Shown one piece after another: positions 2,321 through 29,338 of a stretch of 32,000 nt of DNA. The position numbers were made by a program, and so were the translations under genes. The stretch's first letter is position 1. Every line of letters begins with the position of its first letter. The DNA is from Acaryochloris marina MBIC11017 (GTDB lineage: Bacteria; Cyanobacteriota; Cyanobacteriia; Thermosynechococcales; Thermosynechococcaceae). The notes under the pieces are model-generated. The model worked only from the letters and a program-made list of their open reading frames with translations. It did not search any database and was not told where the DNA came from. The stretch spans positions 2,580,001 through 2,612,000 of the forward strand of contig NC_009925.1 in the NCBI RefSeq assembly GCF_000018105.1, written 5' to 3'.

Positions 2321-2325
2321 CGTTT

Positions 2326-3762: not shown

Positions 3763-3924
3763 TTCTTGAGACCTGAAATTATTTATATGAGAATTGAGGG
3801 AAGCATTACGGTGATCTGGGATCTCTATATTGCAAATCTCAACCTTTTTGTGCGGTGATTTTGAGCACTCCGGTCCCTAGTTTTAACGGGGTATCTTCTC
3901 TAGATATAGCCCCATGTTTCTTCC

Positions 3925-3950
3925 ATAAAAAGGCATCTGGCATTGTGCCT
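3925..3950 (-). terminator. Weak candidate intrinsic terminator after paralog B
   Basis: The minus strand reads AGGCA-caatgccaga-TGCCT followed by TTTTTAT. The stem is only 5 bp with a 10-nt loop. Confidence 0.3.
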
Positions 3951-3978
3951 GTACCTCTCTAGTCAGAGATCAGCTAGC

Positions 3979-4953: not shown

Positions 4954-5691
4954 TCAAGAAGTCGTTGATCGACGCCAGTACTGAATACCCTTGCTGATAG
5001 CCAAGATTATTACAGAGACAATTCCAAAGACCACTATCAGCAGAATGAAATAGACAATAGGCAACACAGTTTCGTCGAAATCCAAAGAGAAAAATCGCTG
5101 GCCGTCTAAATATTGAACTGTTTGGCTACTCGGCTCTATCTTGAACATTGCTTCATAGTAGGGATAGTAGTCTTCAGCAATCTGGCTCCCTGAGACACTA
5201 AGGAAGGCACGTTTTTCTCCAGAGGCTGTTTCACCCATTAAAATCACCCCTGACAAGTACTCGTTGCTGAACCCAGGTGACGGCGTGGCAATAATAGGAG
5301 ACTGCATTAGAGACGTATGCAAATCTGCAATTCCTTGCAAATTGTGGTCAAAGGAAGAGGGCAGCTTCCCCATAGTTTGTAGATAAAGTAGAAGACGTTC
5401 TTCTTCCCTATGGAGCTGTGGATCGTAGTGAGCCGCGATAGTTTGAGATGTATCAACGATAAACTTACATTGTTCGGGCCTATCGCAATCTGATGTCTTA
5501 ACTGGTATCAATCGATCCAACTTGACAATGGTCTTGGCTGTATCGAGTACAGCAGGACGCTCAAACAAATACCCTAAAGTTTCATAGCTCAGCCACAGTG
5601 AGCCTAAACAGGCCAGAAGAAACGTTCCCAGGAAGTAAAATGGGGCAACCTTAACCCTATTTTTCTTGGGTTTGAAGAACTGTTTAGTCAT
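4954..5691 (-). CDS. Uncharacterised two-TM membrane protein, tandem paralog C
   Basis: 245-aa ORF from the same family (CDRPEQC, GKLPSSFD, MQSPIIATP, RAFLS, DYYPYYEA, QYLDGQRFF). Confidence 0.75.
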   Translation of the reverse strand: MTKQFFKPKKNRVKVAPFYFLGTFLLACLGSLWLSYETLGYLFERPAVLDTAKTIVKLDRLIPVKTSDCDRPEQCKFIVDTSQTIAAHYDPQLHREEERLLLYLQTMGKLPSSFDHNLQGIADLHTSLMQSPIIATPSPGFSNEYLSGVILMGETASGEKRAFLSVSGSQIAEDYYPYYEAMFKIEPSSQTVQYLDGQRFFSLDFDETVLPIVYFILLIVVFGIVSVIILAISKGIQYWRRSTTS

Positions 5692-7199: not shown

Positions 7200-7985
7200 T
7201 TACAGCGGGAAGGGAGTAAAGGGCAACGACGTCGATCTTCCACGCTGCATATCCTCACAAATCGCTGGGATAATGGCAGGTAAACTACAAAAAACCAGCA
7301 GTATAAAAGTGAAATAGAACATCGTCATCCCGATTTCGTCAAAATCTTCATCAAAGCGAAACCCATGCCCCTCAAGATATTGAACGGATTCATCTTTCGC
7401 CCCCATCTTGAAAATCGCTTGATAGTAAGGTACGCCTCTATCCGTAACGGGGTAACTATAGGCACTGATAAAGGCTCGTTGCTCTCCACTGGATGTTTCA
7501 CCGACCAAGAGAATCCCCCGCAGATACCGATTTGTTGCTCCTTCATCCAGAGAGTCGATAATCGAAGACTGCATCATCGGCGTATATAAATCTGCAATCC
7601 CTTGCAAATCACGGTCGAAGGCAGACGGTAACTTGCCTTGCTTGTGCAAATGAAGCAGAAGATATTCTTTCAGCTTGCCATTCTGTTGATAGTAATAAGT
7701 GGAGATAGTCTGAGTGGGATCAACGATAAATTTACAGCTTTCTTGCTGATCACAATCTAAGGTTGTGATTGGAATCAAGCGATCAACTTTGGTAATGGTC
7801 TTCGCCGCATCGAGTAGATCTGGATGCTTAATTACAGCGTCCCAGCCTAGGTATGACAGAATGGTCACCCCTACGAAGTAAGCTAGGACAATCTTCTTCT
7901 TACCCGCAACTTTGAATAGCTTATTGGTCATGAGTTGTACATCACACTGGCCTGATGCAGAGCGGAGCAACGAGGCCAGGTCCAT
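7200..7985 (-). CDS. Uncharacterised two-TM membrane protein, tandem paralog D (most divergent; 3' end altered by the IS630 insertion)
   Basis: Same family (CDQQESC, GKLPSAFD, MQSSII, RAFIS, VPYYQA, QYLEGHGFRF). ATG at 7931 (MTNKLFK...) aligns better with the other paralogs than the track start at 7985. The last five codons and the stop are encoded by the right IS end. Confidence 0.65.
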   Translation of the reverse strand: MDLASLLRSASGQCDVQLMTNKLFKVAGKKKIVLAYFVGVTILSYLGWDAVIKHPDLLDAAKTITKVDRLIPITTLDCDQQESCKFIVDPTQTISTYYYQQNGKLKEYLLLHLHKQGKLPSAFDRDLQGIADLYTPMMQSSIIDSLDEGATNRYLRGILLVGETSSGEQRAFISAYSYPVTDRGVPYYQAIFKMGAKDESVQYLEGHGFRFDEDFDEIGMTMFYFTFILLVFCSLPAIIPAICEDMQRGRSTSLPFTPFPL

Positions 7986-8002
7986 GATTGAAAACGACTA
8001 TT

Positions 8003-8100
8003 CAGTAGTCATACATTGATTGAATGATTCCATGCAGTGATACGGATAAACCGCCAATGTGATTGGTCAGCATTCTCTCAGTGATATCCATCACTAGGTG
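8003..8100 (-). repeat. D-type leader, copy upstream of paralog D
   Basis: See 5751-5855. It lies 72 nt upstream of the ATG at 7931. Confidence 0.6.
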
Positions 8101-8197
8101 ACAATTTAAGCGAATGGGTATGGTTACCAGGGATGGACACTCAACATTCATGATTACAGTACGAAAAGTGAATAGCGAACACCTAGACGACTGCCAA

Positions 8198-9229
8198 TCA
8201 AAAATGTTGTAGGAAATGAACAACATCTAAATGCTGATTTTCTAACGCATAATCTATTGCCGTCTTCTGTTCCGCATCTTCATGTTTTGGATCTGCACCA
8301 GATTCCAGCAAAAGTTTTACAACAGAGAGCGATCCAGATTTAGCAGCTTCCAGTAAAGCAGTTGTCTTGTTATGAGTCATCGCATTGACATCCGCACCAA
8401 AACTGATCAACATCGCAACAATTTCGGGCTGCTTCGTTCGCATAATGGGGGTCATATCGTCATAGTCATCCGCTAAATTAGGATCAGCTCCAGATTCCAG
8501 TAAAGCGAGAGTCACTGGTAGTCGAAACTCTTCGAATCGCTTAATAACGGCAAGGTTTAATAGTGTTGATCCGCTCCGACAAAAATCATTGAGGGGGATA
8601 TCTGCCATTAAGAGTTTTTTGATTCCATCAACATCCCCCTCAAACACCACATCATAAGCAGTTTCCATCACAGGATTGATATTTTCATCTCTATACTTCT
8701 GTCGAATCCCTTTCTGCAAGAAATGCGCTGCATCACCCAATAATTCTGGTTGCGTCATGGGAAGTAAGAAGTCGTAAATATCCTGATGCCCCGACAAGGC
8801 AGCATAAATAATGGGCGGTTCTCCCAATACAGTTTGATTGGCATTCGCCCCAGCGCTAACCAAGAGCTGAACAAGATCTAAATATCCTTTGTCAGCCGCA
8901 ATAAATAATGGAGGATCAACCTCACGATGGATTGGCAGCGAAGGATTTGCACCCGCATTTAGCAGAGTAAAAACAATTTCATAATGATTGGCATATACTG
9001 CAGCAGTGAGTGCCGTTTCTTCCCCTACCGTAAGGTTTATATCTGCACCGTACTTGATCAATCGCTTTAATATTTCTAGACTTCCAGCCTGAGAGGCATG
9101 CTGCGCAGCACTGGCTAATTCCAGATCGCTCCATTGATTCTCAGCCAATATAATCTTGAACTGATCTAGATGATTACTGTTAATGGCATCCGTTAAGTTA
9201 AGCCACTCATAATTGATGCTTTCTGGCAT
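8198..9229 (-). CDS. Ankyrin-repeat protein
   Basis: 343 aa built almost entirely of ANK units (G(A/S)D(I/P/A)N..., LH/LL-A(A)--G----V--LL-(S/A)GA). Examples are LKRLIKYGADINL, TLLNAGANPSL, QLLVSAGANANQ, ALLESGADPNL, MLISFGADVNA and LLLESGADPKH. No signal peptide or TM helix is present. Confidence 0.85.
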   Translation of the reverse strand: MPESINYEWLNLTDAINSNHLDQFKIILAENQWSDLELASAAQHASQAGSLEILKRLIKYGADINLTVGEETALTAAVYANHYEIVFTLLNAGANPSLPIHREVDPPLFIAADKGYLDLVQLLVSAGANANQTVLGEPPIIYAALSGHQDIYDFLLPMTQPELLGDAAHFLQKGIRQKYRDENINPVMETAYDVVFEGDVDGIKKLLMADIPLNDFCRSGSTLLNLAVIKRFEEFRLPVTLALLESGADPNLADDYDDMTPIMRTKQPEIVAMLISFGADVNAMTHNKTTALLEAAKSGSLSVVKLLLESGADPKHEDAEQKTAIDYALENQHLDVVHFLQHF

Positions 9230-9326: not shown

Positions 9327-9851
9327 TCAGAGATCTAAAGTCTGAAGAATAGATCGCAAAGCTTTCTCAGTAGAGATATCAGTCAGATCTCCCTCTGCAT
9401 TGATCTTTGCAGATATAGCTGGAATGCAGAGAATTGCTTCCTCTGGGATATCTGCCATCATCACCCGCAAGGTTTGCACCAATGATGCATTGGCTTTATC
9501 TCCGCCATCTGGAGACGGAGAGGCACTGATTACAGCCGTGGGTTTATCCATAAACTCACCTGAAGACACAATCCAATCCAGAGCATTTTTCAAGGTCCCT
9601 GGCACGCCATGGGCATATTCGGGCGTACAAAACAGGACGCCATCTGCGGCTTGTAATTGAGTCCGCCACTCCTTTACGGCGACAAGATCTAAATCGCCTT
9701 CTAACTCAGGATTAAAGTGGGGCAGTTGAGCAATACCGTTGTAGATTTTGACCTTGATGCCTGGGGGGGCTAAGCCAGCGATGGCATGGACTAGACGCGT
9801 GTTTGAGGATTGCAATCGCAAGCTCCCCGAAATTGCCAATATCGTTTTCAT
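9327..9851 (-). CDS. NAD(P)H-dependent FMN reductase family oxidoreductase
   Basis: MKTILAISGSLRLQSSNTRL...FCTPEYAHGVPGTLKNALDW is the flavodoxin-like FMN_red signature. Length 174 aa. Confidence 0.8.
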   Translation of the reverse strand: MKTILAISGSLRLQSSNTRLVHAIAGLAPPGIKVKIYNGIAQLPHFNPELEGDLDLVAVKEWRTQLQAADGVLFCTPEYAHGVPGTLKNALDWIVSSGEFMDKPTAVISASPSPDGGDKANASLVQTLRVMMADIPEEAILCIPAISAKINAEGDLTDISTEKALRSILQTLDL

Positions 9852-9884
9852 GAAGATTGCAGTTGAGGGAATAGGCGCACCGAC

Positions 9885-10553
9885 CTAATACACACCAATC
9901 GTTTTAATCGTCAGGCGAAACTCCCCCGGACTAAACCGAGGATTCAACGCCCCATCATATTCAAACTTACTCAACATCATCTGCATCGCTCGAATTTGAT
10001 GTGCCCCAATTAAAGGGGCATCATTCACCGTTTTGGCCCGAAATACAGGCGTCAACTGATTAAAGGGAATCCGAACCGTGATCCATTGTTGGGCCACCGT
10101 ATCAAATGAGTAGGCATAGGCAATACTGTCCCACCGATCTTGATCGCGCAGCAAAAACTTGTAGCGTTGGCCGTCCCCCTTCACCTGTAATTCAATCCCT
10201 TGGTGGGCCGATAGATTGAGGGGCGGATCGAAATTGCGCGTCCGCACCGAGGCAAACCCACCCGAATTCGCCGTCGAGACCTTGCCCGTAAATAGAGCAA
10301 CGCCTGACTCTTGACGCAAGCCACTATTGCTTACCCCCCCCATCACCACATCATCGACCGCTCCCCAGAGCTGGCTAATATCATTGACCTGGCTAAAGTC
10401 AAAGATGAGATTGGCTTGCACAGGGGGTGGGGCAGGGGGCGTAAATCCAGGCATCATTTTTTGAAACCAGTTGAGAACAGGAATTTCTTCAAAGTAGGAC
10501 AGGGTTTGCAGAAAACGGCCTGCATCCCAGGATTGGCGGGTCGGTTCAGCCAT
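9885..10553 (-). CDS. CIA30 (complex I intermediate-associated protein 30) domain protein
   Basis: W..VDDVVMGGVSNS...F.G.VS..N.GGFASVR... and the later KF.L matrix are typical of the CIA30 beta-sandwich domain. Length 222 aa. Confidence 0.7.
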   Translation of the reverse strand: MAEPTRQSWDAGRFLQTLSYFEEIPVLNWFQKMMPGFTPPAPPPVQANLIFDFSQVNDISQLWGAVDDVVMGGVSNSGLRQESGVALFTGKVSTANSGGFASVRTRNFDPPLNLSAHQGIELQVKGDGQRYKFLLRDQDRWDSIAYAYSFDTVAQQWITVRIPFNQLTPVFRAKTVNDAPLIGAHQIRAMQMMLSKFEYDGALNPRFSPGEFRLTIKTIGVY

Positions 10554-10608
10554 AGAATTGCTACTCAGCCAAAGAGAGGTCCGCCTTAATTGTAAGCATG
10601 AACTCCCA

Positions 10609-11829
10609 TTAGCCTTCTATTTGAGTCGCTAATTTTTTCCCCGCCCATTCCGACAAAATGGGGCCTAATAGGCAAGTGACGACAATATAGGCAATCACCG
10701 CATTAAAGATATTGTCATCCACTAAGCTGGCTTCTTTGCCAAATAACGTAATCACCAACACTAATGCCGCGCGGGGAATCGTCAAGCTGAACAGAGTCAA
10801 CACTTCCATCGGTTCATAGTTAAACCAGCGACCGACTATCCAGGCCGACAGCCATTTAGAGGCGACAGCACCCCCCACAATAACCCCAGCAATGCCTAAA
10901 CTACCGGGTGCCGATACAAACACGGTCGGATTAGCCAACACGCCCACCGACACCATAAACGCCGGAATAAAGAGACTATTACCGACAAAATCAATCCGGT
11001 TCATCAAATCGCTCTCCATGGGAATCGAACGATTCAAGGCCAAACCGGCAATAAAAGCCCCCACAATCGAATCTACCCCTAATCCCTGAGTGGCAGAGGC
11101 AATCACAAATAATGTGGCCACTACAAAAATAAACTGTAGCCCCAGGGAGACCTCTGCTTTGGGATTAAAAAAACAGTGCCCCAGTTGCGGAACACCCCAA
11201 AAACAGAGGGTCGTTAACAGCGGTAAACCCACCAGTAATTTTAGCCATAGGACTAACCCGATTTGCCCCTCGGCCATCGCCTGAATCAAGGCAAAGCCGA
11301 CTAACGTGAGTATTGCCGTCAGTACCGTTCCTCCCACCGCAACCCCAATAGATTCTCGCTGGGCCAACCCTAGCCGGGTCATACTCGGATAGGCCAACAG
11401 AGTATGAGGTGAATACAAAATTCCCAGTAATGCAGAAGCCAACCCACTCGAACCAGCCACTGCGATGATACCCATGCTGATCATCACCTGACCGGACACG
11501 ACGCCCACTGCGAAAGGCAGGCCAAAGGTGAGCAACCCAAACATAAGCGCTCGTACACCCAATCGCTGTAAGTCGCTCAGATCCATTTGCAGACCTGCTA
11601 GCAACATAATGTAGAGCAGACCCACTTTTTCTAAAAAAATCAGCTGGGTATCTCGGGCAATAATGCCTAAGCCATTACTACCTAACAAACAGCCTAAAAG
11701 GATGAGCACCACCAAAGCAGGCAGCTTTAAAGGCTTGGCAATCAGCGGTGCCAGCAGCAAAATGACCAGCAGCACACTAAAGGCATAGACCGGATCTTGT
11801 AAAGGTAGAATCAACGTCGCCATGGACAT
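10609..11829 (-). CDS. Cation:proton antiporter (CPA family, Na+/H+ exchanger-type membrane domain)
   Basis: 406-aa polytopic membrane protein with about 11-12 hydrophobic helices. The N-terminus (VLLVILLLAPLIAKPLKLPALVVLILLGCLLGSNGLGII) is typical of Kef/NapA-type exchangers. Confidence 0.75.
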   Translation of the reverse strand: MSMATLILPLQDPVYAFSVLLVILLLAPLIAKPLKLPALVVLILLGCLLGSNGLGIIARDTQLIFLEKVGLLYIMLLAGLQMDLSDLQRLGVRALMFGLLTFGLPFAVGVVSGQVMISMGIIAVAGSSGLASALLGILYSPHTLLAYPSMTRLGLAQRESIGVAVGGTVLTAILTLVGFALIQAMAEGQIGLVLWLKLLVGLPLLTTLCFWGVPQLGHCFFNPKAEVSLGLQFIFVVATLFVIASATQGLGVDSIVGAFIAGLALNRSIPMESDLMNRIDFVGNSLFIPAFMVSVGVLANPTVFVSAPGSLGIAGVIVGGAVASKWLSAWIVGRWFNYEPMEVLTLFSLTIPRAALVLVITLFGKEASLVDDNIFNAVIAYIVVTCLLGPILSEWAGKKLATQIEG

Positions 11830-14982: not shown

Positions 14983-15260
14983 TGTGAGCAGCAGAAAACA
15001 ACTCTTTAGATTATCACCTGGGACCGAACAATACGGATATATTAATTGAGATTGGCTTTTTTAATAAGAAATACTAATATTTATTTTTGCAAAACACCTC
15101 ATATTCAATTTAAAAATGTTATATTTGATACAGAAATTAAATCGTTCATCCCTTAACTCGTCTTTAACTCTATTCTTAGTAGTCAAGGGACGGAAGTAGA
15201 GCCTTCGCTCGAAGGAACGCGCCTCAAATCTATACCCATCATTATGATCGGAGGCGAATC

Positions 15261-15710
15261 ATGAAACTTACTTATCGCGGTGTTAATTACGACTACAATC
15301 CCCCTGCAGTAGACATGACTTCTAGTGAAGAAGTCGGTCAATATCGTGGATTGGAGTGGAGATTTAGAAACGCTCAAAAACCCCCGGTGATGCAACCCAG
15401 TCTTAACTTGGTTTACCGAGGCGTTGCCTATGAAACAGGCACCCCAGAGCCAGAAGTTGCACCCACCTATACCCCAGCACCTACCACACCTGTGGCTGCT
15501 CCTGCTATTTTGACCGTTCAAAATATGGCTCGGTCATTAATGACATCCCACCACCGCTGGATCAAAAACCGTCAGCAAGCCCTGCTCAGCCGCTCTGCCG
15601 CTGAAGTTGGCTTAAGTGCGGATGCGGCCCATTACTGGAATCATATTCAAGGCAAGGTCCATCCCAGCTTCCGTGGTAGCTATGATCGCTCCCATGCGGC
15701 CTTGAGCTAA
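15261..15710 (+). CDS. DUF4278 domain protein
   Basis: The N-terminus MKLTYRGVNYDYNPP and a second L.YRGV.Y motif are characteristic of the cyanobacterial DUF4278 family. A GGAGG-like RBS (cggaggcgaatcATG) precedes the start and a strong terminator follows the gene. Confidence 0.75.
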   Translation: MKLTYRGVNYDYNPPAVDMTSSEEVGQYRGLEWRFRNAQKPPVMQPSLNLVYRGVAYETGTPEPEVAPTYTPAPTTPVAAPAILTVQNMARSLMTSHHRWIKNRQQALLSRSAAEVGLSADAAHYWNHIQGKVHPSFRGSYDRSHAALS

Positions 15711-20537: not shown

Positions 20538-21491
20538 ATGATTATCATTGTTTCAAATCGTCGGGTGAACGAGGATCAAACCGATCACCGCTTGTTTGGA
20601 GAACGGGCGAATGTGAATGGTCTCGATGAAATTCGTTTAGCAACCGCTGACTACGATGAACCCTCACAACGGTGGCATCTATCCCTCGTTCCCGAAGGCG
20701 ATCTAGATGATGAAGACAGCCGCCCTAGCCACCAATTATTTCAGCGCGTTATGGCCGGGATTCAGGCCGGTCAGCATCAGAAAAACTGGGTGTTTTATAT
20801 TCACGGATTTAATCAATCCATGTTAGACAATCTCAATGCTTGTCGTGAAATCCAAACCCTCTATGACGTGGATGTCATTACCTTTGCATGGCCCTCGAAT
20901 CCAGGAGGGTTTGTGCTTGGCGAATATCAGCGCGCGCGACAGGCCGCTAGAGCATCCAGTAATGCCCTAGATCGCACCTTAGAACTGCTCGGGCGCTACC
21001 TAGCTAGCCGTTCCCTGGTAGAGATGCGGAACTGCCAGATTAGCCTAAATCTCCTCGTGCATAGCTTAGGCAATTATTTATTTGAGGATTTTGTCCGGGA
21101 TCCGGTCTTTAGTGATGAAACTCGCATCTTCGACAACATTATCTTTCACCAAGCGGATGCCGATAATCGCAACCATGCTCAATGGGTTGATCGCGTAGAG
21201 CATGGTCGCCGTATCTACATCACCCTCCATGAGGATGATTCAACCCTCAAAGCATCTGACATTATCAATCCAGGTCGCTTGGGCAATACCCTGGCCAATT
21301 TAAATGCCCAACGAGCAATCTATCTCGATTTTACGAATGGAGAGAATGTCGGCCGGTCCCATAACTTTTTTGATGGTCAGATTGAGAATGTCACCATCCA
21401 AACCATTTTTACCCGTCTACTCAATGGTCAGCGAGGAGAAACCGTAGCTGGCTTAAGCTTCGATCCAACCCTGAATGCTTTTCGGCTATAG
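20538..21491 (+). CDS. Alpha/beta hydrolase, DUF900-like (putative lipase/esterase)
   Basis: WVFYIHGFNQS (oxyanion region) and LLVHSLGNYL (nucleophile elbow; Ser codon at 21063-21065) match the DUF900-type alpha/beta hydrolase pattern. Length 317 aa, no signal peptide. Confidence 0.65.
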   Translation: MIIIVSNRRVNEDQTDHRLFGERANVNGLDEIRLATADYDEPSQRWHLSLVPEGDLDDEDSRPSHQLFQRVMAGIQAGQHQKNWVFYIHGFNQSMLDNLNACREIQTLYDVDVITFAWPSNPGGFVLGEYQRARQAARASSNALDRTLELLGRYLASRSLVEMRNCQISLNLLVHSLGNYLFEDFVRDPVFSDETRIFDNIIFHQADADNRNHAQWVDRVEHGRRIYITLHEDDSTLKASDIINPGRLGNTLANLNAQRAIYLDFTNGENVGRSHNFFDGQIENVTIQTIFTRLLNGQRGETVAGLSFDPTLNAFRL

Positions 21492-21583
21492 CCCCATGAT
21501 GTCGGTTTAGCCTCAGTGGGCTCATGACTCTGAACATTTCTGTGTGAGACCTGCATCGTTTTTGTCTTCTAGAGGAGGAATAT

Positions 21584-23335
21584 ATGTCTCGTAAACCATG
21601 GCACCAGCTTAAAACCCCCCTAGCCCTGATTAAGCTGCTCCAATTCCGAAATCGACTACGGGAAAATAATTTGCATGATACGGCTGCGATCGCACCCACA
21701 GATCACCTCCCCAAACCCAAGCCCAGTCCCGATGGTCGCCATTTTCGCGCCCGCACCGATGATGGCAGCTTTAACGATCTAGACCACCCTGAGATGGGAA
21801 TGGCTGGCACTCGGTTTGGTCGAAATGTGCCCTTGCAAGATGTCTATCCCGATGAGAAGGCTCTCTTAACGCCCAATCCGCGGGAGATTAGCCGTAAGGT
21901 GATGACTCGGGATGAGTTTATTCCCGCCACGATTTTGAATGTGCTAGCTGCCGCCTGGATCCAGTTTGAAAACCACGACTGGTTTTCCCATGGCGACAAC
22001 CAAACCAAACAGAAATTTCAGCTGCCCTTGGCGGACGATGATGACTGGCCTGCAGAGCATCGTCCCTTAGAGGTGGGTAAAACCGCCATTGATGAGACCC
22101 GCAAGGGAGATGAAAGCGGTGGTCCCCCCACCTTTATTAACACTGTCACCCACTGGTGGGATGGGTCTCAAATCTACGGCAGTGATAGCGCAACCGTTGC
22201 TAAACTCCGTTCCCATAAAGATGGCAAACTCACCATGGGAGACGATGGCCTATTGCCGTTAGATGATGGTGGCGTGGATTCCACTGGCTTTAACGATAAT
22301 TGGTGGGTGGGGCTGTCCTTACTGCATACGCTATTTGCCAAAGAGCATAATTTTATTTGCGATCGCCTCAAAGCGGAGTATCCATCCTGGTCCGATGACC
22401 AACTATTTGACCAAGCCCGCCTGATCAATGCTGCCTTAACCGCCAAAATCCACACGGCAGAATGGACCCCCGCCATTTTGCCCCTACCTGCCACCGATAT
22501 CGCCCTCAACGTCAACTGGGCAGGCTTCCTCGGGGAAGATTTTAGATATCTCTTTGGACATATCGGCGAAGGAGAACTGCTGAGCGGCATCCCAGGCTCC
22601 TCGACAGACCACCATACGGCCCCCTACTACCTAACGGAAGAATTTGTGTCCGTGTATCGGATGCATCCCCTAATCCCGGATGACTACCAATACTATGACC
22701 TGCAAGGAAAACTTCTGCAGGAGAGTGACTTTATGGCCTCTTCCGGCAAGCGGACCCGAGCCTTGGTGGAGGCGGTGGGGATGGACAATCTGTTCTACTC
22801 TTTGGGTATTACCCATCCAGGGGCCGTGACCCTCCATAACTTCCCTCGGTTTCTGCAGCTCCACAAGCGGGATAACGGGGAAGTCTTCGATCTAGCCGCC
22901 GTCGATATCCTCCGAGATCGCGAACGGGGAGTGCCTCGGTATAACCGCTTCCGAGAGTTAATCGGACGTAGCCGAGTTAAAAGTTTTGAGGAAATCACCA
23001 GCAATCCTGTTTGGGCCAAGGAACTACGGGAGGTCTATAACAACGACATCAACGCGGTTGATCTGATGGTAGGCATGTTTGCCGAAGATCTACCCGAAGG
23101 CTTTGGCTTTAGCGACACCGCCTTTCGCGTCTTTATCCTGATGGCCTCTCGCCGTCTGAAGAGCGATCGCTTCCTAAGCAAGGACTACCGCGCAGAAATT
23201 TATACCCCCTTCGGCTTGGAATGGATCTATCGCAACAATTTCATTACCCTCCTCAAACGTCACTACCCCAAACTGGCTCCTGCCCTAGTCGGCGTCAGCA
23301 ATGGCTTTGCCCCTTGGCGCAATCTTAGTCATTAG
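21584..23335 (+). CDS. Haem dioxygenase of the animal-peroxidase/cyclooxygenase superfamily (alpha-dioxygenase / linoleate dioxygenase-like)
   Basis: Motifs shared with plant alpha-DOX and COX are AAWIQFENHDWF (distal His, 21974-21976), THWWDGSQIYGS, LLHTLFAKEHNFICDRLK, IHTAEWTPAIL, FVSVYRMHPLIPD (Tyr 22655-22657 and proximal His 22664-22666, equivalent to YHWH in COX) and RERGVPRYNRFRE. A GGAGGA RBS lies 7 nt upstream of the ATG. Confidence 0.85.
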   Translation: MSRKPWHQLKTPLALIKLLQFRNRLRENNLHDTAAIAPTDHLPKPKPSPDGRHFRARTDDGSFNDLDHPEMGMAGTRFGRNVPLQDVYPDEKALLTPNPREISRKVMTRDEFIPATILNVLAAAWIQFENHDWFSHGDNQTKQKFQLPLADDDDWPAEHRPLEVGKTAIDETRKGDESGGPPTFINTVTHWWDGSQIYGSDSATVAKLRSHKDGKLTMGDDGLLPLDDGGVDSTGFNDNWWVGLSLLHTLFAKEHNFICDRLKAEYPSWSDDQLFDQARLINAALTAKIHTAEWTPAILPLPATDIALNVNWAGFLGEDFRYLFGHIGEGELLSGIPGSSTDHHTAPYYLTEEFVSVYRMHPLIPDDYQYYDLQGKLLQESDFMASSGKRTRALVEAVGMDNLFYSLGITHPGAVTLHNFPRFLQLHKRDNGEVFDLAAVDILRDRERGVPRYNRFRELIGRSRVKSFEEITSNPVWAKELREVYNNDINAVDLMVGMFAEDLPEGFGFSDTAFRVFILMASRRLKSDRFLSKDYRAEIYTPFGLEWIYRNNFITLLKRHYPKLAPALVGVSNGFAPWRNLSH

Positions 23336-23345
23336 GGCCTGTTCT

Positions 23346-24263
23346 ATGAAACACCAAACCGAAATCCAGCAATACTGGCCAGCAGCTCAGGACTTTGATC
23401 CGTTACCTGCAGACTATTCCAATTGGTCAGCGCAAAAAAAGCAGGCTTTTCTCTGGGATGAACGCATCCTCCAATCCACCTATGACCAAAACCCACCCAT
23501 TCCTCGGATCAATATTGTCGGGCTCATCTTGACCCCACTCATGATCAAAATGGATCGCCTGGAAGATGAAGCCCCCAGCCGTTGGCGCAAAGCTATCCAC
23601 CCCCATGGCGCTGTGGCCAAAATCAAGTTTGTCCCAGCGGGCGATAGTCCCTATACCGGACTGTTTAAAGGCGCAGACTATGGCTTGCTGAGGGCTTCTC
23701 TCACGGGCGATCCAGCAGATCGGGGATTTGCCCCTGGTCTAGCGATTAAGTTGCTGGCAGATGGCCAGCCTTCCGGCAACTTTTCTGCCCTCGTATCCCT
23801 CTCCGGTCAAGGCCAAAACTATAATTTCCTGGCTCATCGATTCTCCAATATTGTGCCTGTGGCTCAGGAGTTTGGCCCCCGATTCACGAACCTAATTTTT
23901 CGTCGGGTCACCAAATACCCTACCCGTATTGACCTTCAACACTTAGGTTCTACTACCCAGCAGGGTCAGGTCGAAGCACAGCCCCATACCCCCACCCAAG
24001 TCTTTCTCGTTCCCAATCCTGACCTGCAGTTTGCTGAAAGCCCCCATGACTTCCGAGCGGATCTGGCCCACATTCCCCCAGGTACCCAGTTGTTTTCTAT
24101 CTATGCAACGGATGCGGTCGATCCAGACGGGGAAACGATGACGGCTGGCGATCAACCTCAAGCCCAACTAATCGGACATTTGGAGACCACCTCCGAGTTT
24201 GTGGCTTCCTTCTACGGCGACAGTCAGCTCTTCTTTCGGCATCAGCGCTTCCGTAACCAGTAG
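23346..24263 (+). CDS. Small catalase-related haem protein (candidate fatty-acid hydroperoxide-transforming enzyme)
   Basis: RKAIHPHGAVAKIKF matches the catalase distal-His motif H-x-x-G-A-x-A-x-x-x-F (His codon 23598-23600). The C-terminal SFYGDSQLFFRHQR resembles the catalase proximal-Tyr motif FSY-x-D-T-Q-x-x-R (Tyr codon 24213-24215). At about 305 aa it is comparable to known ~33-kDa mini-catalases. It starts 10 nt after the dioxygenase stop. The track ORF start at 23301 overlaps the upstream gene and is unlikely to be real. Confidence 0.6.
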   Translation: MKHQTEIQQYWPAAQDFDPLPADYSNWSAQKKQAFLWDERILQSTYDQNPPIPRINIVGLILTPLMIKMDRLEDEAPSRWRKAIHPHGAVAKIKFVPAGDSPYTGLFKGADYGLLRASLTGDPADRGFAPGLAIKLLADGQPSGNFSALVSLSGQGQNYNFLAHRFSNIVPVAQEFGPRFTNLIFRRVTKYPTRIDLQHLGSTTQQGQVEAQPHTPTQVFLVPNPDLQFAESPHDFRADLAHIPPGTQLFSIYATDAVDPDGETMTAGDQPQAQLIGHLETTSEFVASFYGDSQLFFRHQRFRNQ

Positions 24264-24290
24264 TCCGTCACTCTGCCATAAGGAAATCCT

Positions 24291-25799
24291 ATGACCTCAG
24301 ACATTATCTTTCAGCCCTTAGAGTGGCGCAATCTAACGGTTAAAAATCGCATTTTCCGATCCAGCATCTCAGGGCGTTGGGATAACTACGATGGTTCGGG
24401 CACCCAAGCCCGGATCAATTGGGAAGAGCAGTTTGCCCAGGGTGGCGTCGGTGCCATTATCTCGTCCTATACCCCCATTCATATTGAAGGACGGATTGTG
24501 CCGAATGCTGCCATGATTGACTCGGACGACCGCATTCCCTTCTGGAAAAAGGTTGGCGAGACGGTTCATCAGCACGACTGCAAGTTTATCCTCCAGCTCA
24601 GCCATTCGGGGCGTCAGCGCGATATTGATGGGGTCGAAAATACCGTTCCCGATTCCTTTAAGCCCACACCTGCCCTGAGTGCAACGACCCTCTCAGAACA
24701 GATTCATGGGTTCCGCTGTCGCCAGATGACCCAGACAGAAATCCAGCAGACGGTACAAAGGTTTGCGGATGGGGCGCACCGGGCTCGGGAAGCTGGACTA
24801 GATGGCGTGGAATTACATAGCTCCCATGGCTATCTGATTACCCAATTCCTCAGTTCTGGCATCAATATTCGCAATGATGACTATGGGGGGTCTCTCGAAA
24901 ATCGATATCGGTTCCTGCAGGAAATTGTCCAGGCTATTCGCCAAACTGTCGGTGATGATTTTCATCTCCAGGCCAAGATTAGTGCCGTGGACTATAACAA
25001 TGTCTTGCCCTGGGAACGGAAGGGCAACACCCTATCTGAGTCCATTCAAGTCTGTCAGTGGCTCGAACGAGATGGGGTAGATGCTCTCCATATTTCTCGG
25101 GGCAGTACCTTTCCCCATCCCCTATTACCCGCAGGGCCTTTTCCCTTTAAGATTGCCACCTCCACCTACGACACGATGATTTCCAGTGCCCCGTGGCGCA
25201 CCCTCCTCAATTACTTTCTATTTCGCAGTCCCTTACTTCAGCCCTTTTTTAAGTGCATCTGGAATCGCTTGGAGCGGCATTGGCAGCCTCCCGTTAAAGG
25301 CGATCGTCTCTCGTCAGATTCTCTCTCCCACTTGATGCAAGAGCATATCTCTACCCATGAGTTTCAGGCCCTATTAGCCCGCTACCAAGGCACGGTTATG
25401 GAAGATGCCCAGGCCATTAAGGAACAGGTCAATATTCCTGTTATTTGCACCGGCGGCTTCCAGCAAGCCTCTTTTATCCGGCAAGCGATTGAGAAGGGAT
25501 TCTGTGATGGTGTTACCCTTGCCCGCCCGCTGGTCGCCAATAAGGATCTGGCCCACCAGTTTCAGGCAGGAAACGATATTCCCGAGCGACCTTGTACCTA
25601 TTGCAATCAATGCTTGGGGAGTTATCTGGAGTATCCCCTGGGCTGCTATGAACGCCGTCGATATTACCAGCGCTCTATTACTGGCGCAGATAAAGCGGAG
25701 CAAGATAAAGCGGCACGAGAAGCCCATGACGCCATGATTCAAGATGCTATGCGGGTTTATAGCCCACCGCCCTTTAGCCCGGCCGAGCAAACGGCATAA
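24291..25799 (+). CDS. Old Yellow Enzyme-family NADH:flavin oxidoreductase with a C-terminal 4Fe-4S-type Cys motif
   Basis: OYE/2,4-dienoyl-CoA-reductase-like motifs are present: LTVKNRIFRSS, ILQLSHSGRQ, AGLDGVELHSSHGYLITQFLS, RNDDYGGSLENRYRF and ICTGGF. A CxxCxxCx10C motif (CTYCNQCLGSYLEYPLGC, 25593-25646) is also present. At 502 aa, the protein has no C-terminal FAD/NAD(P)H domain. Confidence 0.8.
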   Translation: MTSDIIFQPLEWRNLTVKNRIFRSSISGRWDNYDGSGTQARINWEEQFAQGGVGAIISSYTPIHIEGRIVPNAAMIDSDDRIPFWKKVGETVHQHDCKFILQLSHSGRQRDIDGVENTVPDSFKPTPALSATTLSEQIHGFRCRQMTQTEIQQTVQRFADGAHRAREAGLDGVELHSSHGYLITQFLSSGINIRNDDYGGSLENRYRFLQEIVQAIRQTVGDDFHLQAKISAVDYNNVLPWERKGNTLSESIQVCQWLERDGVDALHISRGSTFPHPLLPAGPFPFKIATSTYDTMISSAPWRTLLNYFLFRSPLLQPFFKCIWNRLERHWQPPVKGDRLSSDSLSHLMQEHISTHEFQALLARYQGTVMEDAQAIKEQVNIPVICTGGFQQASFIRQAIEKGFCDGVTLARPLVANKDLAHQFQAGNDIPERPCTYCNQCLGSYLEYPLGCYERRRYYQRSITGADKAEQDKAAREAHDAMIQDAMRVYSPPPFSPAEQTA

Positions 25800-25831
25800 C
25801 CTCGGATGCAAATTGCAAGCGTGATATCCCA

Positions 25832-27328
25832 ATGAGCAGTACACCCTTTTTCCAGAAAGTCTGTCGTAACTTCAAGCGGTTAGCCCTAGGGCTGGTTAGC
25901 CTAGTTTTAGTGATCGTTTTATGTCTGGCATGGCCCCTATTGACGGCGCGGTCCCCTCAATACACGGACATTACCGACCATTTTAAGTATGGCTCGATTG
26001 GCGGTGCCTCCACCATGGGAATTCCCTATTGGATTTGGCAAGTGATGCCGGTGATGTTTCCGGAGTACCTACCCACTGAGGACTACGCTACCCCTGGGAC
26101 AGGCTATACCCAACTGGGCTTTATGCAGGAACCGGGGCAAGATCTGCCTATTGGGTTTGCCAAGGATACCCAATTAGGGTTGGAAGTGGTGACCAATAAC
26201 TGTGCCCTTTGCCATGTGGGTAGTATTCGCAACACCTCTGATGGCCTACCGCAAGCCATCCCGACGATGCCGTCTAACACTGTTAATTTGTCAGCCTATT
26301 TTCGATTTATTACTGGCGTTGCCGATGATCCTCGGTTTAATGCTCGGGAAATGATGCCCTATATCAAGGATTTGGGGGCCGATCTGAATCCCTTGCAGTC
26401 CCTGCTCTATCGCTATATTGCTATTCCCCAAACCCGGGCGTTACTCAGCATCCAAGCCGAGAAGCTCAGTTTCTTGTCGGATCAGCCCCAGTACGGTCCG
26501 GGGCGAGTAGACACCTTTACCCCTTATAAAACCCGCACCTTTAATATCAACCTAGATGACCTCCCGCCTGAAGAAATTGAAGGAGCAGCCAGCGACTTTC
26601 CCAGTGTTTGGCAGCAACGCCCCCGGGAAGGTATGCAGCTCCACTGGGATGGTGACAATACCTCCGTGGCGGAACGGAATAAGAGCGCTGCTTTAGCTCT
26701 GGTCTCCCCCACCAATATTAATTTGGATGCCATTACCCGAGTGGCCGACTGGTTGTTGGATCTCCCGGCTCCGCCCTATCCCTATCCCGTGAATGAGGAG
26801 CTGGCTGTCCAGGGGCAATCTATCTTTGCCAACACCTGTGCCAGCTGCCATGCCTTTGACGGTCCAAAGGTCGGAATCGTGACGCCCATTGCAGAAATCG
26901 GTACCGATCCAGGTCGCTTAAATTCTTATACCTATGAATTTGCCTCGAATCAGTACACGCTGTTTGCGGGGATTACCTATAAAGGCGAAGATCAGCGGTT
27001 TACTCACTTCCGCAAAACCCACGGCTATGCCAACCATCCCTTAGACGGATTGTGGTTGCGATCGCCTTATCTACACAACGGCTCAGTCCCGACCCTAGAG
27101 GATCTGCTCAATCCGCCTGAGCAACGCCCAGCTAAGTTTTATCGGGGTAATGATGTCTATGACCCAGACAAAGTGGGGTTTGTGGCAGATGTTGCCGCAG
27201 CCAACGGCAGCAAATTTTTCGAATATGATACGTCGCTGCCAGGGAATGGCAAGGAAGGCCATCTCTATGGAACCACTTTGTCTAAGTCAGACAAAACAGC
27301 TCTGATCGAGTATTTGAAGACCCTTTAA
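25832..27328 (+). CDS. Membrane-anchored di-haem c-type cytochrome, CCP/MauG-like C-terminal domain (paralog 1)
   Basis: It has an N-terminal TM (LALGLVSLVLVIVLCLAWPLL) and two CxxCH motifs (CALCH 26201-26215; CASCH 26837-26851). LWLRSPYLHNGSVPTLEDLL resembles the conserved (A/S)PY(F/M)HDGS..TLE motif of bacterial di-haem cytochrome c peroxidases. Confidence 0.7.
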   Translation: MSSTPFFQKVCRNFKRLALGLVSLVLVIVLCLAWPLLTARSPQYTDITDHFKYGSIGGASTMGIPYWIWQVMPVMFPEYLPTEDYATPGTGYTQLGFMQEPGQDLPIGFAKDTQLGLEVVTNNCALCHVGSIRNTSDGLPQAIPTMPSNTVNLSAYFRFITGVADDPRFNAREMMPYIKDLGADLNPLQSLLYRYIAIPQTRALLSIQAEKLSFLSDQPQYGPGRVDTFTPYKTRTFNINLDDLPPEEIEGAASDFPSVWQQRPREGMQLHWDGDNTSVAERNKSAALALVSPTNINLDAITRVADWLLDLPAPPYPYPVNEELAVQGQSIFANTCASCHAFDGPKVGIVTPIAEIGTDPGRLNSYTYEFASNQYTLFAGITYKGEDQRFTHFRKTHGYANHPLDGLWLRSPYLHNGSVPTLEDLLNPPEQRPAKFYRGNDVYDPDKVGFVADVAAANGSKFFEYDTSLPGNGKEGHLYGTTLSKSDKTALIEYLKTL

Positions 27329-27380
27329 GGTCCGTATCATACCTATCTATTTTTACCTACCTAAAATTGGAGCCAGTCAA

Positions 27381-27815
27381 GTGAGCACACAAAATCCCTA
27401 TGCAAAATGGTTTGGCTATGTCGTTTGGCTGGGCATCGCCGTCAATCTTCTATTTATTATTCCCATTTGTTTTTTCCCTGAATGGCTGCTTTCTCTCCTC
27501 AGGATGACTATTCCTATCCCGATTATTTGGGTGCGAGCGGCAGGGTTATTGCTCTTGGAAATTAGCATTCTGTATATTCCGGGAGCGCTGGATCCGTATC
27601 GATATCGAGCGACCGCATGGATGTCAGTTCTGGTCACCCGGGGTGGTGGAGCCTCGTTTTTCTTGATTGCCGTGCTGTTTTTTGGTCAAGAACTGGGCTT
27701 TCTTTCCATTGCCATTGTGGATCTAATTTTTGGGGTCACAGAGGGCATTCTGCTGTATTTAGCGATGCAAGACAAAACGGCTCTTGCAAACCAATCCTAT
27801 TCTGAGCCGGTCTAG
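27381..27815 (+). CDS. Small hypothetical 4-TM membrane protein
   Basis: 144-aa ORF with a GTG start, GGAG 8 nt upstream and four hydrophobic helices. It sits between the two di-haem paralogs on the same strand. Confidence 0.5.
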   Translation: MSTQNPYAKWFGYVVWLGIAVNLLFIIPICFFPEWLLSLLRMTIPIPIIWVRAAGLLLLEISILYIPGALDPYRYRATAWMSVLVTRGGGASFFLIAVLFFGQELGFLSIAIVDLIFGVTEGILLYLAMQDKTALANQSYSEPV

Positions 27816-27913
27816 TCGGCCGACAAACTGGGCCAAATTGGGGCCTCAAAAACTAAGTTCAAGCGGATTAGCAAGAGGGTCGAATGCCCGATCGTTGCTG
27901 ACGTTATCAAGGA

Positions 27914-29338
27914 ATGAAGACTATGCTTGGCAAAAAAATCGCCACCACCTTACTGATTCTGGGCCTGCTCGTGGGCACGGTGGTCTATATTGGCTGGTAC
28001 AATCTCCTGCGCGAAGTGGACACCTATATCGAATCGCCAGCCGAACATTTTAAGTATGGATCAATCGGGACAGAAAATGATCAAGGGGTTCCCTACTGGA
28101 TTTGGATGGTGCTCCCTCGCCTTTTTCCGGAATATTTACCCGGAACCAACGGCTATACTTCCTTGGGCTTTACCTGGGAACCCGGTCAGGAAACCCCGGT
28201 GGGCGTCTCTAAAAAAACGATTGGTTTTCCTCGCCAAGGCATTACCTGTGCCGTTTGCCATTCAGCAACCTATCGCAAAGCGCCTGAGGACAATCCCATC
28301 ATTGTGCCAGCTGGCCCCTCGGTCAAATTTAATTCCTTGGGCTATGTGCGCTTTTTGCAGGCTTGTGCCCAAGATCCCAGATTTACGGCAGACTACATTT
28401 TGCCTGAGATTGAATACAACCATTCCTTATCGGCTTTTGAGAAGTTACTCTACCGATTTCTGATTATTCCCACGACCCGCAAGGAAATGCTTGAGCAGGG
28501 CGAATCCTTTGCCTGGACCAATTCTCGACCCAATTGGGGACCGGGGCGTATCGATCCTTTTAACCCCGTGAAATTCAATATGCTAGCTATCCCCATAGAT
28601 GACACCATCGGCAACTCCGATATGATGTCGCTTTGGAATCAAAAGCAACATCAAGGATTTGCCCTGCACTGGGATGGTTTGGAAACCTCCCTCACAGAAA
28701 CGGTGAATACCGGTGCCTTGGGAGATGGAGCCACTCGTAAATCCATCAATATTGAAGGGCTACAACGGGTCGAAAAATATATCACAGAACTGGATCCACC
28801 CCAATTCCCTTTTGCCATCGATCAAGCTGCTGCCGCCAAGGGCGAAAAGGTATTTGACCAGCACTGTGCCACTTGCCATGCCTTTGGCGGTGAGCGCACG
28901 GGCACCGTTATCCCCCAGCAAGAAGTCGGCACCGATCGCCACCGACTGGACATGTGGACCCAAGAAGCAGCGGATAAATATAACGCCTTTGCGGAAGGGT
29001 ACGACTACGACTTTGACCAGTTACGGAAAACCGATGGCTATCTCTCCGTGAGCTTAGATGGGTTGTGGTTACGAGCCCCCTATCTGCACAATGGGTCAGT
29101 ACCTAGCTTGCAAGATTTACTCAAAACCCCAGATGCACGGACGCCAGTGTTTTACCGAGGCTACGATGTCTATGACCCCGACGCCGTCGGCTTTATTTCG
29201 CAAGGTGCGGAGGCTGAGAGGGTTGGATTTGAATACGACACATCCGTAGTGGAAAATAGTAATCAGGGGCATGTATACGGCACCAATTTACCTGACAAGG
29301 ATAAGGCGACATTAATTGAATATCTAAAAACCCTGTAA
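27914..29338 (+). CDS. Membrane-anchored di-haem c-type cytochrome, CCP/MauG-like (paralog 2)
   Basis: Collinear with 25832-27328. Shared blocks are HFKYGSIG, PYWIW, FPEYLP, GPGR(V/I)D, LHWDG, DGLWLR(S/A)PYLHNGSVP, FYRG.DVYDPD.VGF and LIEYLKTL. CxxCH motifs are CAVCH (28247-28261) and CATCH (28865-28879). ATG at 27923 has better spacing from AAGGA than the track start at 27914. Confidence 0.7.
   Translation: MKTMLGKKIATTLLILGLLVGTVVYIGWYNLLREVDTYIESPAEHFKYGSIGTENDQGVPYWIWMVLPRLFPEYLPGTNGYTSLGFTWEPGQETPVGVSKKTIGFPRQGITCAVCHSATYRKAPEDNPIIVPAGPSVKFNSLGYVRFLQACAQDPRFTADYILPEIEYNHSLSAFEKLLYRFLIIPTTRKEMLEQGESFAWTNSRPNWGPGRIDPFNPVKFNMLAIPIDDTIGNSDMMSLWNQKQHQGFALHWDGLETSLTETVNTGALGDGATRKSINIEGLQRVEKYITELDPPQFPFAIDQAAAAKGEKVFDQHCATCHAFGGERTGTVIPQQEVGTDRHRLDMWTQEAADKYNAFAEGYDYDFDQLRKTDGYLSVSLDGLWLRAPYLHNGSVPSLQDLLKTPDARTPVFYRGYDVYDPDAVGFISQGAEAERVGFEYDTSVVENSNQGHVYGTNLPDKDKATLIEYLKTL

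Follow-up and report, generated by a model that had tools for sequence, protein, structure and literature searches.

The locus described here raises the question of whether the open reading frame (ORF) that directly follows a dioxygenase gene in the cyanobacterium Acaryochloris marina MBIC11017 encodes a relative of the catalases and, if so, what such a protein would do with the product of its neighbour. The ORF lies in a window of 32,000 nucleotides (contig NC_009925.1, positions 2,580,001 to 2,612,000 of the forward strand), by which we mean the whole stretch of DNA that was analysed, and CATL is the label used here both for the ORF at 23346-24263 and for the protein family around it. An initial annotation, made from the sequence alone, had read CATL as a mini-catalase-like protein of the kind that acts on fatty-acid hydroperoxides. 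We find that CATL is a genuine, conserved protein with no prior annotation, and a genuine genetic partner of the α-dioxygenase encoded upstream; according to its structural models it resembles the mini-catalases at the level of the fold only, through a signal that is weak but specific.

Gene borders and conservation

Exactly 10 nt separate the stop codon of the dioxygenase gene (TAG, 23333-23335) from the start codon of CATL, and both the borders and the spacing originally given for the ORF are exact (Table 1). A longer CATL starting from an ATG at 23301, which would overlap the dioxygenase gene, was considered and rejected: homologs are 300-312 aa long, and their alignment begins at the Met encoded at 23346. 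Close homologs number 242, and an exhaustive HMMER search at E ≤ 1e-3 found at least 2,138 cluster representatives of the family. Comparison with the 94%-identical homolog from an Acaryochloris metagenome-assembled genome (MAG; locus L001) gives 55 synonymous and 16 nonsynonymous codon differences; to judge from the codons, CATL is under purifying selection. No Pfam or NCBIfam model matches CATL; in UniRef, two members of the family have been named “Catalase” automatically.

Homologs from outside the cyanobacteria carry an N-terminal signal-peptide or lipobox-like sequence, whereas the cyanobacterial homologs do not; such leaders are seen at loci L067 (3795-4751), L070 (7944-8882) and L078 (5881-6861; a Pseudomonas veronii plasmid). 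At L067 a hydrophobic leader is likewise found at the N-terminus of the α-dioxygenase, and the next gene encodes a membrane dipeptidase.

Table 1. Coordinates in the window of CATL, its candidate functional residues and the genes around it
Feature	Coordinates	Strand	Description
CATL	23346..24263	+	305 aa; ATG 23346-23348, stop 24261-24263; predicted remote catalase-like fold
His85 codon (K82-A-I-H85)	23598..23600	+	Candidate distal catalytic His; H in 100/102, K/R at -3 in 102/102
Arg116-Ala-Ser118 codons	23691..23699	+	Putative counterpart of catalase/cAOS (coral allene oxide synthase) R-x-S/A; R in 102/102, S in 95/102
Tyr290 codon	24213..24215	+	Putative proximal ligand of the initial annotation; Y in 69/69 of close clade; Y51/F35/W14 family-wide
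His299 codon (LFFRH299QRF)	24240..24242	+	Candidate alternative ligand or catalytic residue; H in 101/102
Fatty-acid α-dioxygenase (haem; An_peroxidase family), CalDOX ortholog by sequence	21584..23335	+	583 aa; Pfam PF03098, E=1e-113
DUF900 α/β-hydrolase	20538..21491	+	Pfam DUF900 E=3e-12; upstream of the dioxygenase; in only 2/73 loci
Old yellow enzyme (OYE)-family NAD(P)H:flavin oxidoreductase	24291..25799	+	Oxidored_FMN E=7e-64; 27 nt after CATL; in 24/73 loci
RoxA-like dihaem cytochrome c (peroxidase-like)	25832..27328	+	N-terminal transmembrane segment; Pfam RoxA-like_Cyt-c E=2e-15; in 22 loci
Small hydrophobic protein between the two cytochromes	27381..27815	+	144 aa; no Pfam/NCBIfam match; kept in 16 loci
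Second RoxA-like dihaem cytochrome c	27914..29338	+	N-terminal transmembrane segment; Pfam and NCBIfam matches (CytoC_perox above cut-off)

The upstream dioxygenase

The dioxygenase encoded upstream of CATL carries the motifs WIQFENH131DW and F354-VSV-Y358-RM-H361, in which H131, F354, Y358 and H361 correspond, with identical residue numbers, to the distal His, stacking Phe, catalytic Tyr and proximal His of CalDOX, the α-dioxygenase (α-DOX) of Calothrix parietina; the carboxylate-binding residues H290, T295 and R524 (R529 in CalDOX) are present too. An An_peroxidase protein encoded on plasmid CP003611.1 of Calothrix sp. PCC 6303 agrees with CalDOX at 16/16 published residues, and the window dioxygenase, 67% identical to that protein, keeps 14 of the 16, the exceptions being V18L and A310V. 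On the strength of these residues, the upstream gene is an α-DOX ortholog. The motifs of the 10S-dioxygenases (10S-DOX: FTDSF; IMxxYIxxITP; GRxxSxIPAxxARxIGxDAFxQA) were found neither in the window dioxygenase nor in any of the 73 genomic loci encoding CATL relatives that make up our linkage sample; their absence, together with the CalDOX orthology, rules out that the gene encodes a lipoxygenase-like enzyme or a 10S-dioxygenase.

CalDOX converts C10-C14 fatty acids to 2-hydroperoxy acids and these to Cn-1 aldehydes (Kim et al. 2022, PMC8720084). The product of α-DOX is a 2(R)-hydroperoxy fatty acid, for which spontaneous decay to the Cn-1 aldehyde and the 2-hydroxy acid has been reported. Since the window dioxygenase is an ortholog of CalDOX, the substrate to be expected for CATL is a 2-hydroperoxy fatty acid. 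The chemistry implied by the initial annotation does not fit such an upstream enzyme, which would make 2-hydroperoxy acids from mostly saturated fatty acids; the chemistry of allene oxide synthases is not applicable to these.

Genetic linkage and natural fusions

At least 2.5 kb of upstream sequence was available for 59 of the 73 loci, and in 54 of these an α-DOX-type gene lies beside CATL: 46 times directly upstream on the same strand and 8 times divergently upstream, with gaps in the linked loci that are all below 1 kb and at their shortest 11-20 nt. In P0167 (919 aa) and P0180 (1356 aa) both partners form one natural polypeptide, with an α-DOX-type An_peroxidase domain and CATL as the C-terminal domain. 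The pairing with a dioxygenase, first noticed in the window, holds well beyond it. The family does have another kind of neighbour: in an Acaryochloridaceae MAG (L069) a CATL paralog (7992-8843, plus strand; 35% identity, Phe at position 290) lies about 600 nt from a gene for a 455-aa mini-lipoxygenase (9429-10799, minus strand; lipoxygenase Pfam E=4.9e-13), and the CATL family is therefore not confined to α-DOX partners.

Predicted structure and conserved residues

Two AlphaFold2 (AF2) models of CATL, one built from 69 close homologs (predicted local distance difference test, pLDDT, 85.6) and one from 102 diverse representatives (pLDDT 92.9; predicted template-modelling score, pTM, 0.91), were searched with Foldseek against 350,542 PDB chains. 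Both returned the same two notable matches, coral allene oxide synthase (cAOS; 3dy5_A) and the 33-kDa catalase-related protein of Mycobacterium avium (MAP-2744c; 3e4w/3e4y), with probabilities of 0.92-0.96 and E-values of 8e-4 to 6e-3 across the two models. For model 2 the figures are E=8.4e-4 and probability 0.93 (3dy5_A) and E=2.6e-3 and probability 0.96 (3e4w_A), with the next match at E=0.16; the weaker matches are ligand-binding eight-stranded barrels (lipocalins, nitrophorins, prostaglandin D synthase). The two structures that the initial annotation had named for comparison thus came out on top, but with template-modelling (TM) scores of only about 0.33-0.36. The link to the catalase fold is made by these two models and by colinear distal-side motifs.

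Both stretches that had first suggested a catalase, the distal-type H85-P-H-G-A-V-A-K-I-K-F95 and the proximal-type F289-Y290-G-D-S-Q-L-F-F-R298, are present in CATL. Residue counts across the family refer to the 102 diverse representatives, and those for the close clade to its 69 sequences. Three motifs, [KR]-x-[ILV]-H-x-x-G, L-R-x-S and G-x-A-I-K (in CATL K82-A-I-H85-x-x-G, L-R116-A-S118 and G-L-A-I-K135), are colinear with those of the catalase relatives, at spacings of 31/19 in CATL, 35/20 in cAOS and 35/22 in the catalase-related domain of the cyanobacterium PCC 7120; the position of His85 corresponds to RIVH128 of Escherichia coli catalase HPII, RATH67 of cAOS and RALH of MAP-2744c. The published defining residues of cAOS and catalases are R64, R102 and R360 at the haem propionates (Arg102 of cAOS being a haem-propionate ligand), T66, H67 and N137 on the distal side, and Y353 on the proximal side. 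Two of the propionate arginines have conserved counterparts, K82 (K or R in 102/102) and R116 (102/102); at the site of the third, seven or eight residues after the Tyr, CATL has F297 and a variable R298 (R44/Q32/K18). Asp292, two residues after Tyr290, is invariant (102/102), and the residues that we count as truly invariant are H85, R116, K135, D292 and H299.

The hidden Markov model (HMM) search by which catalase kinship was to be recognised gave no match, and the same is true of the profiles. Pfam Catalase (PF00199) matches 0 of the 102 diverse members; among PDB sequences no catalase was found by phmmer with the single CATL sequence or by two family profiles, the sole match, to IFI202 (E=0.003), being dismissed as spurious; and hhalign of the CATL family against HPII, the PCC 7120 domain and the catalase-related lyase of metagenome locus L079 (see below) gave probabilities below 1% each. 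The non-significant 16-column match of hhalign with HPII lands on KAIH85 / RIVH128, and the best local match of hmmsearch is also at RIVH128. When 1,004 sequences, 1,000 of them shuffled decoys, were scored with the CATL family HMM, a MAP-2744c fragment came first, at only 5.4 bits, the aligned region being the stretch from R116/S118 to K135 (L-I-R-F-S...G-M-A-V-K-F against L-L-R-A-S...G-L-A-I-K-L in CATL). The characterised PCC 7120 domain, used for calibration, also has no Pfam Catalase match and matches MAP-2744c at only E=0.042; since this domain itself escapes Pfam Catalase, the negative results for CATL are softened.

Proposed function and the points against it

The explanation that we favour, and to which we give an even chance, is that CATL is the second enzyme of a bacterial fatty-acid α-oxidation or oxylipin operon, handling the 2-hydroperoxy product of α-DOX. 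Because the two genes are tightly coupled or fused, because the dioxygenase is an α-DOX ortholog and because the product of such an enzyme is a 2-hydroperoxide, CATL would receive this hydroperoxide and set its fate. The haem α-dioxygenase would introduce O2 into a free fatty acid at C2, giving the 2(R)-hydroperoxy fatty acid; CATL, presumably made from the same transcript, would capture this unstable hydroperoxide and steer its breakdown in place of spontaneous decay; and a flavoenzyme encoded downstream, the OYE reductase in the window and a glucose-methanol-choline (GMC) oxidoreductase in the Nostocales, would then modify the product. CATL itself would be an extremely diverged, trimmed catalase-core protein, with a pocket made up of His85 as distal acid/base, Lys82 and Arg116 as counterparts of two haem-propionate arginines, Ser118, Lys135, Asp292 and His299. 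Most likely it would hold haem and cleave the O-O bond, with the Cn-1 aldehyde and CO2 as the likeliest products, ahead of a 2-hydroxy or 2-oxo acid. We know of no enzyme for handling the 2-hydroperoxy fatty-acid product of α-DOX.

Several observations weigh against this explanation. Five of the 59 loci have no dioxygenase nearby. No significant sequence or profile match links CATL to any catalase or mini-catalase, and the Foldseek superpositions on cAOS and MAP-2744c reach TM-scores of only 0.32-0.36 at a root-mean-square deviation of 11-17 Å. In cAOS, the PCC 7120 domain and the L079 lyase a Thr stands immediately before the distal His, the “Thr-His connection”; in CATL it is missing, position 84 being I75/L14/V10/F3 across the family and never Thr. 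There is no counterpart of the distal Asn, which is N137 in cAOS and N147/148 in catalase, and no N-T or N-N motif, the colinear position being L152/S153 before a conserved G154-Q155. The Arg four residues before the proximal Tyr is indeed absent, as had been noticed at the outset: CATL has Val286, the family has Val or Ile, and Arg is never conserved there. The Tyr itself gives way to Phe or Trp in about half of the family, DOX-linked and DOX-fused members among them: Phe occupies position 290 in L059 (from a Synechococcus MAG that shares the α-DOX/OYE/RoxA cluster of the window), L067 (DOX-linked, Bacteriovoracales), the lipoxygenase-linked L069, L070, and the fusion P0180. The chief argument, directed at the version in which CATL is a lyase, is that CalDOX and LepDOX yield aldehydes without a partner in E. 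coli (PMC8720084), so that CATL is not needed for the aldehyde.

With position 290 so freely exchanged, the Tyr is not a universal haem ligand, should haem be bound, and its assignment as a catalase-type proximal ligand is not established; going by these substitutions, Tyr-ligated haem is not a conserved feature of the CATL family. Since some members of the family do without Tyr290, another axial ligand, for which His299 is a candidate, or no haem at all are the alternatives. What stands of the catalase likeness first perceived is the pair of fold neighbours and the colinear distal motifs. A significant sequence link, the Thr-His connection, the Asn and the Arg are absent; with several of the defining features missing from its sequence, neither haem nor the membership of CATL in the family of catalase-related hydroperoxide enzymes is established.

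A broader claim may be put forward tentatively, although we would sooner expect it to fail: that the CATL family is the missing dedicated second enzyme of α-DOX pathways, a catalase-fold derivative that has given up tyrosinate ligation, or haem, and channels 2-hydroperoxides to a defined product. The α-dioxygenases of plants and cyanobacteria have been described as stand-alone enzymes, whose product decarboxylates “spontaneously” to the aldehyde or becomes the 2-hydroxy acid; if the claim were true, bacterial, and perhaps other, α-dioxygenases would be two-enzyme systems, and a genetically locked, sometimes fused partner would mean that the fate of the 2-hydroperoxy intermediate is under enzymatic control in bacteria, with the gene for it named. 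CalDOX, LepDOX and CsDOX are under development for the production of flavour aldehydes, and a partner that alters yield or product would be directly useful. The CATL family would also widen the range of the catalase fold beyond the Thr-His mini-catalases, offering a natural experiment in the replacement of a Tyr ligand by Phe or Trp, and the “hypothetical proteins” of over 2,000 clusters that lack a Pfam or NCBIfam model would gain a function.

Alternative explanations

The competitor that fares best, although we consider it rather unlikely, is a catalase- or lipocalin-like β-barrel without haem that would either decarboxylate 2-hydroperoxy acids by acid-base catalysis or carry the α-DOX product; in this barrel His85 and His299, with Lys82, Arg116, Lys135 and Arg237, would bind and protonate the α-hydroperoxy-carboxylate. 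Such a protein would fit the exchange of Tyr290 for Phe or Trp in a family that holds His85, Arg116, Lys135, Asp292 and His299 invariant; the missing distal Asn and third propionate Arg, the lipocalin, nitrophorin and prostaglandin D synthase barrels among the weaker Foldseek matches, and the lack of any catalase signal at the sequence level all point the same way, and by our own chemical reasoning a 2-hydroperoxy acid could in principle break down to aldehyde, CO2 and water without the help of a metal. It is harder to reconcile with the fact that the sole Foldseek matches of probability above 0.9 are haem-binding mini-catalases, or with the conserved K-x-I-H and R-x-S, which correspond to the catalase residues that position the haem and the distal His; the lipoxygenase-adjacent paralog, moreover, would meet a hydroperoxide without an α-carboxylate.

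An accessory protein of the haem peroxidase type, its axial ligand being His299 or some other residue, that reduces the 2-hydroperoxide to the 2-hydroxy acid, or that supplies or consumes peroxide to activate or protect α-DOX, seems to us improbable: no partner that would supply the reductant is evident, and the idea is a variant of the explanation we favour and not an exclusive alternative to it. It would account for the invariance of His299 and for the 2-hydroxy acids among the products of the α-DOX reaction, which the GMC oxidoreductase of the Nostocales could oxidise further. MAP-2744c, the nearest solved structure of similar size, which we take to be a Tyr-ligated haem peroxidase dependent on organic hydroperoxides, has Leu before its distal His much as CATL has Ile.

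The view taken by the initial annotation, in which CATL is a conventional catalase-related, Tyr-ligated haemoprotein of the cAOS or hydroperoxide-lyase type, equivalent to the 10S-hydroperoxide lyase of Nostoc punctiforme and turning an unsaturated hydroperoxide into an allene oxide or chain-cleavage products, now appears very improbable. The upstream enzyme, as an α-DOX ortholog, lacks every published 10S-DOX motif, and saturated-acid 2-hydroperoxides cannot yield allene oxides, a point of established chemistry; this is set against a gene order, dioxygenase and then catalase-like gene, that does agree with the published pair. Tyr290 is invariant in the close cyanobacterial clade, but half of the family has Phe or Trp instead; the distal His of CATL follows an Ile, and the Asn and the Arg are missing; and while the top Foldseek matches are cAOS and MAP-2744c, the 10S-lyase ortholog of locus L079 is a canonical catalase relative with no similarity to CATL. 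Finally, that the ORF is non-functional and its motifs the work of chance, a notion to which only the lack of a database family covering it could lend colour, is refuted for practical purposes by the 2,138 representatives, the 55:16 split of synonymous and nonsynonymous differences, the confident AF2 fold and the conserved synteny.

Neighbouring genes and other features of the window

From 20538 to 29338 the genes of the window are co-directional, with gaps of 10-98 nt. Two alternative accessory modules accompany the α-DOX/CATL pair: the type seen in the window, with the OYE-family reductase, one or two RoxA-like cytochromes and the small membrane protein (24, 22 and 16 loci), and a Nostocales type, with a GMC oxidoreductase and a patatin-like lipase (21 and 18 loci). 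The cytochrome encoded at 25832-27328 scores 185.8 bits against the 150-bit cut-off of NCBIfam CytoC_perox, and that at 27914-29338 is its paralog, with about 43% identity (tblastn cross-hits); the trio of cytochrome, small protein and cytochrome accompanies the pair in 16-22 loci. The DUF900 hydrolase encoded upstream of the dioxygenase could be a lipase that frees the fatty-acid substrate, although its association with the pair is weak; in its place the Nostocales clusters have a patatin-like lipase. On the Calothrix sp. PCC 6303 plasmid CP003611.1 (L075, 4776-12700) CalDOX, insertion sequence remnants and CATL are followed by genes for a 646-aa GMC oxidoreductase and a 583-aa patatin-like lipase, a layout found at about 20 Nostocales loci; its gene content suggests a complete path from lipid to free fatty acid, 2-hydroperoxide and further products.

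Four loci from Synechococcales MAGs (L055-L058) encode CATL homologs of about 52% identity that keep Tyr290, and the flanking sequence available for them holds neither a dioxygenase nor a lipoxygenase; around the L056 homolog are encoded a GH38 mannosidase, an RTX-repeat protein, an α/β-hydrolase and a 486-aa protein without family assignment. A lipoxygenase or other oxygenase was looked for near the DOX-less members L056 and L068, and none was found there. Long proteins combine CATL domains with other partners as well (P0168, P0171, P0189 and P0239): P0168 (1546 aa), possibly a gene-model fusion, has PTHB1/BBS9 domains, which are typical of eukaryotes, together with two CATL domains, P0239 has DUF2515, and the N-terminal halves of P0171 and P0189 match no family. 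By its domain content, P0168 hints that the CATL family may reach into eukaryotes.

Elsewhere in the window, a glutamine riboswitch aptamer (15141-15223, plus strand; Rfam RF01739, 51.5 bits against a gathering score of 35, E=1e-8) sits just upstream of a 149-aa ORF at 15261-15710. Four minus-strand ORFs (2962-3762, 3979-4764, 4954-5691 and 7200-7985) encode proteins of 245-266 aa without a Pfam match, which may be paralogs of one unannotated family, and an ankyrin-repeat protein of 343 aa (Pfam Ank_2 E=2e-40) is encoded at 8198-9229 on the minus strand.

Comparison with known systems

A gene pair of N. punctiforme for a 10S-DOX and its lyase was reportedly described by Brash et al. in 2014. 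According to later literature, a linoleate 10S-dioxygenase gene is followed by the gene for a catalase-related 10S-hydroperoxide lyase (PMC13049297, PMC9579011, PMC9410191); the 10S-DOX is UniProt B2J5P4, of 542 aa, with the motifs F143-TDS-F, IMxxY305IxxIT310P, FxxxY342 and G469RxxSxIPAxxARxI483GxDA487FxQA (2026 review). N. punctiforme PCC 73102 is not among the 73 loci, the Nostoc clusters inspected, the best 120 dioxygenase homologs or the six matches of a cAOS/PCC 7120 profile; back-translation of the published terminal motif of 10S-DOX and a scan of metagenome contigs with it led to one locus, L079 (OGVQ01000090.1). Here two minus-strand genes, at 1963-3144 and 3224-4357, between them encode a 10S-DOX-type dioxygenase and a 393-aa catalase-related protein. 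The dioxygenase, which is partial, has all three 10S-DOX motifs (IMEEYINHITPYHFKL, FDFVYRWH and GRKNSTIPALVARLIGIDAFSQA), and the 393-aa protein, encoded directly downstream, shows RD-T-H-AKT, LRFAN, VH-N-TE and R-SIV-Y, that is, the Thr-His, the distal Asn and the R-x-x-x-Y, and passes the Pfam Catalase PF00199 cut-off (27.1 bits against 25). From these motifs the L079 pair appears to be the ortholog of the N. punctiforme pair. Between CATL and the L079 lyase no similarity is detectable by BLASTP (E=0.88) or hhalign (probability 0.5%).

The likeness to the N. punctiforme pair lies in the logic of the operon: a haem dioxygenase of the peroxidase-cyclooxygenase superfamily, with a catalase-fold gene directly after it whose product consumes the hydroperoxide. 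The differences are that the dioxygenase belongs to another subfamily, that the lyase, judged by its L079 ortholog, is of a recognisable catalase-related type, unlike CATL, and that the substrate there is an allylic 10S-hydroperoxide and not a 2-hydroperoxy acid. The possibility that the window locus is an ortholog of the N. punctiforme pair was rejected on the missing 10S-DOX motifs, the CalDOX-like dioxygenase and the lack of sequence relationship between CATL and the L079 lyase. Because the L079 dioxygenase and lyase and the window dioxygenase and CATL belong to distinct subfamilies, as far as sequence comparison can tell, 10S-DOX/lyase and α-DOX/CATL are parallel arrangements drawn from different subfamilies of both proteins.

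With cAOS, the best Foldseek match of model 2, CATL shares the colinear [KR]-x-x-H, L-R-x-[SA] and x-[AS]-I-K at similar spacing, and both are joined to a hydroperoxide-forming dioxygenase, by fusion or by gene linkage. However, cAOS has T66-H67, N137 and R349...Y353...R360 where CATL has I84-H85, no Asn and V286...Y290, with a Tyr that is not kept family-wide, and CATL is about 70 residues shorter, superposes with a TM-score of 0.36 and has no match at the sequence level. MAP-2744c (PDB 3e4w, 3e4y) is closer to CATL in its length of about 300 aa, in a putative ligand near the C-terminus and in having a hydrophobic residue ahead of the distal His (R-A-L-H; K-A-I-H in CATL), but the HMM score is the low one given above and the TM-score 0.33; we know of no pairing of this protein with a dioxygenase. 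The haem domain fused to a mini-lipoxygenase in PCC 7120 (pCC7120gamma, WP_010994078.1) is, like CATL in our reading, a catalase-fold domain of cyanobacterial origin and tied to a fatty-acid dioxygenase, and it too escapes Pfam Catalase; it differs in having both the Thr-His and the Asn and in matching cAOS at E=5e-27, whereas hhalign gives no meaningful alignment between it and the CATL family.

The nearest known system on the side of the dioxygenase is that of CalDOX, LepDOX and CsDOX (PMC8720084), of which the window enzyme is an ortholog, and in Calothrix PCC 6303 a CATL gene of 62% identity lies 1.5 kb downstream of the CalDOX gene. In those studies the dioxygenase was characterised alone and the neighbouring gene is not mentioned; CATL would be an undescribed partner of the cyanobacterial α-dioxygenases.

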